IMG/VR virus record: IMGVR_UViG_3300031754_000001
Location: 32,001-96,000 of that record
Reading direction: 5' to 3' (one strand)
Origin: a virus
DNA length: 64,000 bases
The translations under genes were made by a program, and so were the position numbers. Below the pieces are notes generated by a model. The model was not told the origin of the DNA. It made no database searches and worked only from the letters and a program-made list of their open reading frames with translations. This document shows, piece by piece, positions 29,683 to 30,250 of the stretch. Each line of letters opens with the position of its first letter. Positions within the stretch are counted from its first letter, which is position 1.

Positions 29683-29876
29683 TGGATGACTTCGGCCGCC
29701 ATCTCGGGTGCCTGCTGTACGGGCTCCTGGGCCTGGCCGCGGGCGGCATCCTCGTCGCGGTCGTGCTCGCGTGCCTGATCCTGGCGGGCGTGCTGTTATG
29801 GCCGGCGATATCGCGTGGGACGATGCCGCGCTGTATGACCTGCTGCACTCCCCGGTCGGGCCGGTCGGGGAGCTGA
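29682..29876 (+). CDS. Small membrane protein; apparent end at TTA 29796
   Basis: TM helix then TTA overlapping next ATG. Confidence 0.5.
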   Translation: MDDFGRHLGCLLYGLLGLAAGGILVAVVLACLILAGVLLWPAISRGTMPRCMTCCTPRSGRSGS

Positions 29877-30250
29877 TCGCCGAGCTGAGCGAGCGCGGCG
29901 CGGCCGTGGCCCGCGCGGTGGTCCCGATCCGCCGCAGCCGGGCCGGGCATAACAGCACCGCTAAGCCGCCCGGGTTCACCAAGGCCGGCATCCGCGTGCA
30001 CGGCCCGGTTACCGGCAGCCGCGGCGGCCTGTACGGGGGCGTGAATGCGCCTTTCGACCCGGGCGCCTTCCTGGAATACCCGGCTGAGCAGATGTCGAGA
30101 ACCTACCCGTTCCTCACGACCGGCATGAATTCGCTGGAGTTGTTATGGCCGGCCGCAAACTCGGCGACGTGTTCTTCGTGGTCAGCCCGGAGACTAAGTA
30201 CTTCCGGGCGGAAACCGACGCCGGGATCAAGCGCGCTATCGCCGGGATGA
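29798..30250 (+). CDS. HK97 gp10-like tail completion protein; apparent end at TTA 30143
   Basis: AR..VP, FLEY, YPFL motifs. Confidence 0.72.
   Translation: MAGDIAWDDAALYDLLHSPVGPVGELIAELSERGAAVARAVVPIRRSRAGHNSTAKPPGFTKAGIRVHGPVTGSRGGLYGGVNAPFDPGAFLEYPAEQMSRTYPFLTTGMNSLELLWPAANSATCSSWSARRLSTSGRKPTPGSSALSPG

Follow-up and report, generated by a model that had tools for sequence, protein, structure and literature searches.

TTA in the place of stop codons at gene ends of an uncultured, high-GC soil phage

Two consecutive gene junctions of an uncultured soil phage were found to carry TTA where related phages have a stop codon, with the A of each TTA forming the first base of the next ATG. The junctions flank the gene of a conserved 115-residue protein, and the second of them starts the tape measure gene. 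Both lie in a window of 64,000 nucleotides, positions 32,001 to 96,000 of the 139,583-base IMG/VR virus record IMGVR_UViG_3300031754_000001 (labelled G000; completeness estimate 66%, CheckV). TTA stands at the exact stop column of homologs in all five testable genes of G000, including these two, and was not found in gene bodies. On this comparative evidence, UUA is probably not decoded as an ordinary leucine codon in the phage-host system and would act as a fourth, possibly conditional, end-of-gene signal. Coordinates refer to the window, which has a G+C content of 67.5%, and to its + strand unless stated otherwise; those of the full records are marked as such.

The two TTATG junctions

At junction 1 the TTA (29796-29798) occupies the stop slot of a gene for a short membrane peptide, in the context GTG CTG TTA TGG, and its A is the first base of the ATG (29798-29800) of the 115-residue protein. 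At junction 2 the TTA (30143-30145) occupies the stop slot of the latter gene, in the context GAG TTG TTA TGG, and its A is the first base of the tape-measure ATG (30145-30147). The terminal codon shares a base with the downstream start at both junctions, as in a stop-start overlap; the overlapping codon in the window is TTA and not TAA, TAG or TGA, and a recognised stop is present in relatives.

The formal reading frames continue beyond both sites. Read-through tail 1 (29799-29876) comprises 25 codons and TGA and runs out of frame within the 115-residue gene; tail 2 (30146-30250) comprises 34 codons and TGA and overlies the N-terminal part of the tape measure in another frame. Neither tail retains the frame signal. 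Third-position GC changes frame at both TTATG sites, and the coding score in the peptide frame was +17 before the TTA at 29796-29798 and -22 after it. The 106-nt overlap that results from formal read-through far exceeds every other overlap between called genes, of which the longest is 29 nt. A census of junctions in G000 gave 41 of the ATGA type and 2 of the TGATG type.

The first-pass annotation had described a 13-mer at the two junctions with an in-frame TTA sharing its A with the next ATG, and the sequence is as described. The 13-mer, TGTTATGGCCGGC, occurs at 29794 and 30141, with 2 forward and 0 reverse copies in the whole record (reversed control 0). The identity is made less striking by ATGGCCGGC, which begins 3 of the 186 called genes, and by both preceding codons being Leu codons of the form NTG. 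What lies beyond chance is the TTA in the stop slot rather than the 13-base identity. The 13-mer was also considered as the mark of a duplication and this was dropped, as the similarity ends at the 13 bases. For four TTA sites, folding of the surrounding 100 nt of RNA gave z = -0.33, +0.99, -0.99 and +0.95 against shuffles, and no structure is claimed. A promoter and terminator scan of 28000-31000 gave nothing above shuffles.

The 115-residue protein and junction 2

The 115-residue protein (29798-30142) belongs to the virion module, and its gene has no strong Shine-Dalgarno sequence of its own. Homologs were collected by protein search (29) and by profile search of 1.84 billion representatives (57, of which 34 were retrieved for comparison). 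The DNA comparison covered 27 related loci taken from IMG/VR and from JGI metagenomes, with several contigs represented twice and two copies of the gene in three loci. Every copy of the 115-residue gene in all 27 loci ends in TGA, TAG or TAA, in line with the earlier expectation of TGA or TAA in related phages. Where the tape-measure start of a relative is recognisable (ATGGCCGG., MAGRxLGD) the junction reads TAGATG, TAAATG, TGATG or TGAGATG. The start of the tape measure in the window, MAGRKLGD, agrees with the MAGRxLGD of relatives.

It had been claimed that the 115-residue protein ends naturally at the TTA and that the read-through tails look non-coding, and both points are supported by the comparison. 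The stop lies 5-7 residues past a PF(L/M)T..L motif in 53 of 60 other family members, and the TTA of the window follows the motif after 5. Among the remaining seven, two stop after 9 and 12 residues and five continue for 13-43; seven further family sequences outside the motif pattern were left out, of which five, by eye, end 5-7 residues after the motif. Read-through tails are absent from 53 of the 60, and conservation of the tails was not seen: where present, they extend for 13-43 residues past the motif and vary in sequence as well as in length.

Leucine fills the slot in all six long-tailed members (window included), and Leu-Trp in four of the six; Leu-Trp is the outcome of NNA TGG read over an ATGG start. 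A tree of 30 core sequences included four of the six tailed members (the window, P0001, P0003 and P0005), which require three changes most parsimoniously. Well-supported branches force at least two changes, with the window and P0001 as sisters (95/94).

The name 'gp10-like', given to this protein in the first-pass annotation, was not confirmed. Pfam PF04883 (HK97 gp10-like) was matched by 0 of 30 family members at E <= 1, and no PHROGs match to the protein was obtained at E <= 0.01. The AlphaFold model had a mean pLDDT of 64, with tail 2 at 45-58. The top fold match in both searches was the SaPI1 neck chain 9mu2_P, at a weak level (Foldseek E 4.1; VIA Z 4.1, rmsd 5.5, 90 residues). The INPHARED phage collection gave no match for the 115-residue protein or for 3 kb of DNA around the junctions, nor for the N-terminus of the glycosyltransferase described below.

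The membrane peptide and junction 1

The gene upstream of junction 1 (29682-29795) starts with GTG and encodes a 38-residue single-helix membrane peptide, VDDFGRHLGCLLYGLL...LILAGVL. GAGGAG lies 7 nt upstream of the GTG at 29682, and third-position GC in the gene is 0.95-1.00. All six non-self homologs of the peptide (P0088-P0093, 66-92% identity) are exactly 38 residues in length and end ...LAG(V/D)(L/I), one codon before the TTA of the window; tail 1 is absent from all six. On this evidence the 38-codon open reading frame (ORF) is judged to be a real gene, because six homologs of exactly 38 residues share its ending.

The peptide gene is missing between the tail assembly chaperone gene and the 115-residue gene in the related loci compared at the DNA level, where the 115-residue gene begins directly at the chaperone stop (CGGTGA) and the chaperone frame ends ...DE(E/D)FR*. 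A tblastn search of the peptide against all these loci recovered the window only, and alignment of the peptide against viral contigs gave no match. Neither Pfam nor PHROGs gave a family for it.

Further genes with TTA at the stop column

Three more genes of G000 have TTA at the column at which homologs stop. The first, at 15045-15635 (197 residues), is followed by TTA at 15636-15638, and its formal ORF adds 11 codons, to 15674. Among the 120 homologs listed for it, none covers more than 94% of the query; the 16 that were aligned all finish at ...KLYGE(N/S) or a residue short of it, and locus L030 has TAA at the TTA column. The second, at 21725-21958 (78 residues), is followed by TTA at 21959-21961, and its formal ORF adds 15 codons (to 22009). 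Its homolog in the related genome G003 (71% identity) ends ...SSAGGIRSLG TAG at the TTA column. The third is the large terminase gene of G000 (record 3889-5667), whose TTA column is TGA in G002 and TAA in G001.

The converse was also observed: two of three tested TTAs of G001 align with true stops of G000 or G003. Further in-frame TTAs were seen in the G001 record at 33349 (+), 13933 (-) and 38486 (+), where the coding signal ends and the formal stops lie 14, 48 and 60 codons later.

In gene 15045 the TTA at 15636 is followed by 32 bases without coding signal and then by TGATGGCCGGC. A hop from AAT to AAC TAG over a 16-nt gap at 15636 would also end the protein at ...KLYGEN, like the homologs. 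Hopping from gene-end UUAs to a nearby stop fits this site (AAT...AAC TAG) and, loosely, two others; as a general rule it was dropped, being a misfit to the two junctions and to the G001 cases.

ORFs with TTA at record positions 112843, 40098 and 7007 had no homologs in G001-G004. At window 8098 (record 40098) and record 7007 these are convergent pairs of small ORFs in which the in-frame TTA of one, read on the opposite strand, is the TAA stop of its partner. Their formal stops lie 35 and 163 codons on, and the TTA-bearing ORFs are small with weak coding scores.

Codon statistics

TTA is the rarest codon in G000, with 8 occurrences among 38,505 codons of 186 gene calls. Two of these precede the likely true start and one belongs to an antisense-looking ORF; in all the others the formal stop follows after 4-34 codons; three that were apparently internal (record 6092, 28872 and 18317) were reclassified by hand inspection. 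When the best of six frames was taken for the ORFs of G000 and G001, no TTA was located in a gene body, all being before the start or near the formal end. By the product rule (TTG x CTA / CTG) about 3.4 gene-body TTAs would be expected in G000, against 0 found. UUA is practically absent from ordinary coding positions in both genomes, as in the phiHau3 type of UUA-led bypass compared below. Absence from gene bodies combined with presence at the stops of homologs (5/5 in G000, 2/3 in G001) is a pattern expected of a code variant that turns a sense codon into a stop.

As a control on coding signal, codons preceded by 30 codons of clear coding signal were selected and the same-frame score of the following 30 codons was recorded. 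This score was negative after 7 of 7 TTA codons. For true stops it was negative after 81/86 TGA, 11/16 TAG and 6/9 TAA; for all other sense codons it was negative in 4213 of 26,420 cases (16%), the worst rare sense codon being TGT (9/16). In an uncurated gene set 3 of 7 TTAs were within the last 15 codons, compared with 2-18% for 21 other rare codons. A TTA of G002 at 111357 is apparently internal, although the translation of its ORF looks like an antisense frame.

UUA-led coding gaps in the same lineage

The glycosyltransferase gene of the window (Glyco_trans_1_2; 26504-27578, with a GTG start at 26504) contains two UUA-led inserts. The first is the 6-nt TTACCC at 26615-26620, located after ..YNL and in frame in the window; at the same place G003 has 11 nt, out of frame. 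Ten uninterrupted homologs read ..NL-xDRL.., without the insert residues. A CUU-to-CUY hop at this gap was rejected, as the conserved xDRL would be deleted.

The second is a 4-nt coding gap at 26879-26882, TAT TTA C CAG, in which Tyr codons TAT and TAC flank the gap (TAT TTA C, 26876-26882). Thirteen uninterrupted homologs read TE(S/C)PY(Q/E)(D/E) with one Tyr in a single frame. The glycosyltransferase gene of G003 shares 23 nt with that of the window here, along with the +1 break at TAT TTA C. The gene is visibly more A+T-rich before 26880 than after.

In the terminase gene of G002 (record of L007, ~190 kb; about 182845-182860, minus strand) a frame shift is needed at GAA TTA CT GAG TTC. Skipping of TTACTGAG, or a GAA to GAG hop, restores ..TAHEFKAAAEH.., which is uninterrupted in G000. 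Gaps of the phiHau3 type were thus found at GAA-TTACT-GAG in the G002 terminase and at TAT-T-TAC in the glycosyltransferase; the two TTATG junctions need no such gap and lack a TTG landing codon. UUA-led bypass in the G002 terminase and the glycosyltransferase is supported by these comparisons.

tRNA genes and host leads

The window carries 34 tRNA genes at 787-7515 on the - strand. The Leu anticodons are CAG, GAG and CAA only, with none for UUA. G002 has 39 tRNA genes, of which a cluster of 38 matches that of G000 in reverse order and the 39th lies elsewhere. tRNA-Leu(UAA) and tRNA-Leu(UAG) are absent from both sets. His and Tyr tRNAs were seen in the G002 set and not in the G000 set. An RF-1 domain was not found in the 66%-complete G000 record.

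The leads to a host are actinobacterial: a GC content of 67.8%, Atlas neighbours in Actinomycetota, nearest terminases in Rhodococcus, Mycobacterium and Arthrobacter phages (at most 36% identity) and one homolog of gene 15045 labelled as a Streptosporangiaceae metagenome-assembled genome. Relatives of the 115-residue family or of the terminase were not found in genome contigs, and no prophage or host was found.

Neighbouring genes

The major tail protein gene (28308-28793) gave weak PHROG hits. It is followed by a tail assembly chaperone pair (28898-29682) with a G frame at 28898-29461 and a T frame open from 29305 to a TAG at 29680-29682; the names G and T are taken from position and frame geometry, no family hit having been obtained. 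The T frame is -1 relative to G, with a G/T overlap of 29305-29461. No XXXYYYZ heptamer was found in this overlap, the nearest being CCCGGGC at 29254, before the T frame opens. The chaperone TAG overlaps the GTG (29682-29684) of the peptide gene as TAGTG.

The tape measure protein (30145-36048; 1967 residues) contains NlpC/P60 (residues 1364-1438) and lytic transglycosylase SLT (about 1495-1563) domains. In its C-terminal region two long near-repeated segments (AERAKY.GLGH.FA.GPAKYRT.SV...) were seen in translation. GGAG at 30134-30137, 7 nt before the tape-measure ATG, was read from the sequence as a putative Shine-Dalgarno.

Interpretation

The first-pass annotation had proposed that UUA is a pseudo-stop that couples reinitiation. 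The placing of UUA in the stop slot is supported and extends to the three more genes above; termination and reinitiation we infer. If UUA is an end-of-gene signal, then the TTATG junctions would be working equivalents of the TGATG, TAATG and TAGATG junctions of relatives. The natural products would be the 38-residue membrane peptide and the 115-residue protein, and the 25- and 34-codon tails would arise as by-products, at a low rate or solely under conditions in which a tRNA that reads UUA is active. Ribosomes would stop at UUA because the UUA-reading tRNA of the host is absent or inactive while the phage grows, by analogy with bldA of Streptomyces (PMC10732093). Where matched codons flank a short gap the ribosome would hop over UUA, and at a natural gene end UUA would do the work of a stop. 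Reinitiation of the next gene after UUA may then follow; coupling fits the 115-residue gene, which has no strong Shine-Dalgarno and whose start overlaps the preceding stop in relatives.

Two extensions of this proposal were considered. UUA may be regulated, serving as a stop in growing cells and as leucine in ageing cells, in which case every UUA-ended gene would be a sensor of host state. In a bolder form, which we consider doubtful, UUA would be a true fourth stop for a group of uncultured high-GC soil phages and their host, with untagged protein freed by a release or rescue factor and with termination-reinitiation at UUAUG; this would constitute a new sense-to-stop code variant.

Several points weigh against UUA as an end-of-gene signal. 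Termination at UUA is a reading from comparison, and the counts are small (5 genes plus 2). The formal TGA of gene 15045 overlaps the next ATG (TGATG; TGATGGCCGGC at 15671) and, from its sequence, looks as though it is used by ribosomes that have read UUA. The third tested TTA of G001 lies directly before TGA and is aligned with Lys in G000, as if sense, and the in-frame TTACCC of the glycosyltransferase could simply add Leu-Pro. The tailed members P0001, P0003, P0005, P0033 and P0038 were compared as protein sequence, and in them CTA is an alternative to TTA in the slot, as is every Leu codon in the case of P0033. When a ribosome stalls on a sense codon, rescue with tagging and degradation is the normal outcome (PMC10732093); tagging would harm the essential terminase, and therefore a clean release path must be assumed.

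A rival explanation is ordinary stop loss: TTA would have arisen by mutation of TGA or TAA and be read as Leu at the normal rate, with harmless tails and an independent start of the next gene. The frames are formally open, the tape-measure gene has its own GGAG and the terminase tail extends for 4 residues after TTA; the TGATG at the formal end of gene 15045 and the TTA TGA of G001 likewise suggest a readable UUA. Loss of stops by mutation should, however, have placed other one-step sense codons in the slots (AGA, CGA, GGA, TCA, AAA, CAA and GAA among them), and the tails of six of six family members start with Leu. Apart from the two at TTA, no overlap in the genome exceeds 29 nt; the tails vary in length and sequence; the coding signal is lost after TTA in 7 of 7 cases, as at a stop, compared with 16% for sense codons; and TTA is absent from gene bodies. 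Stop loss is accordingly regarded as unlikely, although it is the explanation to which we give most weight after the proposed end-of-gene signal.

Recoding at the junction UUAs is very improbable; here a frame shift, or a hop onto a matching codon, would fuse the peptide to the 115-residue protein or the latter to the tape measure. Elsewhere in the lineage there is support for UUA-led bypass between matched take-off and landing codons, and a CTG is present 33 nt downstream of junction 1 in the 115-residue frame; a hop to it would remove the conserved N-terminus of the 115-residue protein. No TTG follows junction 2 in the stretch read, neither junction has an XXXYYYZ heptamer, and the RNA folds no better than shuffles (z from -0.99 to +0.99). 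The three proteins are separate in relatives, with true stops. A sequencing or assembly artefact, with true bases TGA or TAA, is extremely unlikely. G000 is a metagenome assembly, and no RNA run on record covers the junction stretch, the sole run that contains it being probably the source of G000 itself. A 24.5-kb Logan contig produced with a second assembler spans 29300-30700 with 0 differences at a word depth of 10.7; it derives from the probable source run of G000 and so represents the same sample, not an independent one. The TTA bases are not the slip of one assembler, because this second assembly is identical over 29300-30700. The same pattern is present in G001, G002 and G003 and in proteins from Logan, JGI and ENA, and the 186 other called genes have normal stops.

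With UUA as a probable end-of-gene signal, standard gene callers would give wrong C-termini and false long overlaps in such phages; in G000 this would affect the terminase, the neighbour of the tape measure and at least 3 other genes. The drift of a rare codon into a stop role could now be tested on natural, recurrent examples, as could the sensing of host growth state by phages through one tRNA and productive ribosome release at a sense codon.

Comparison with known systems

Coupling through stop-start overlaps (TGATG, TAATG, ATGA) is established in bacterial and phage operons. The geometry at the two TTATG junctions is identical, the last base of the terminal codon being the first of the ATG; the overlapping codon here is a sense codon in the standard code, and termination at it is putative. 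Among code variants, AGA and AUA are unassigned in Micrococcus luteus and TTA is a stop in NCBI table 23 (Thraustochytrium mitochondria). As in the present proposal, these involve the loss of normal decoding of a sense codon that is rare in a biased genome, with translation able to end at it. They are codes of a whole cell or organelle, whereas here only phage genomes are concerned and decoding may depend on host state. In phage T4 gene 60 a 50-nt gap is bypassed at a real stop codon. The likeness is in an undecoded A-site codon after a take-off codon; with its real stop and 50-nt gap, gene 60 is relevant to the glycosyltransferase and terminase gaps and not to the junctions.

In the titles and abstracts listed by a full-text literature search, and in the consulted sections of PMC10732093, no UUA was placed in the stop slots of any phage or bacterium, and the work on bypass and adpA was all that concerned UUA. 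What appears to be new is the extension of UUA-dependent recoding in actinophages, which is already known, to gene ends.

In the terminase gene of the Streptomyces phage phiHau3 short UUA-led blocks are bypassed, and the explanation given is that UUA goes undecoded in growing hyphae, where a functional bldA tRNA is still lacking (Antonov et al., 2023, RNA Biol, PMC10732093, where Smith et al., 2013 is cited on phiHau3). According to the same article, Streptomyces phage genomes usually lack any UUA (PMC10732093). As far as that account goes, the window shares with phiHau3 the codon, a high-GC, actinophage kind of setting and, on the proposed reading, the logic of a tRNA missing or inactive while the host grows. 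Short UUA-led gaps flanked by matched codons are present in its lineage too, in the G002 terminase and the glycosyltransferase. The two junctions differ from phiHau3 in having no gap or usable landing codon, UUA being at the natural gene end, where relatives have their stop.

The adpA transcript of Streptomyces has a GUG-started upstream ORF with UUA 5-6 nt before the main start, and published profiling has recorded ribosome pausing at this UUA (PMC10732093). Start-codon occlusion and possible termination at or near UUA are discussed by the adpA authors (PMC10732093). Junction 1 resembles this arrangement, as described there, in that a short GTG-started ORF carries UUA beside the start of the next ORF. 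In adpA the UUA lies upstream and a real stop overlaps the start, whereas at the junctions of the window it is UUA that overlaps the AUG, and the next real stop comes only after 25-34 codons; adpA encodes a host regulator, and the TTATG junctions belong to a phage structural operon.

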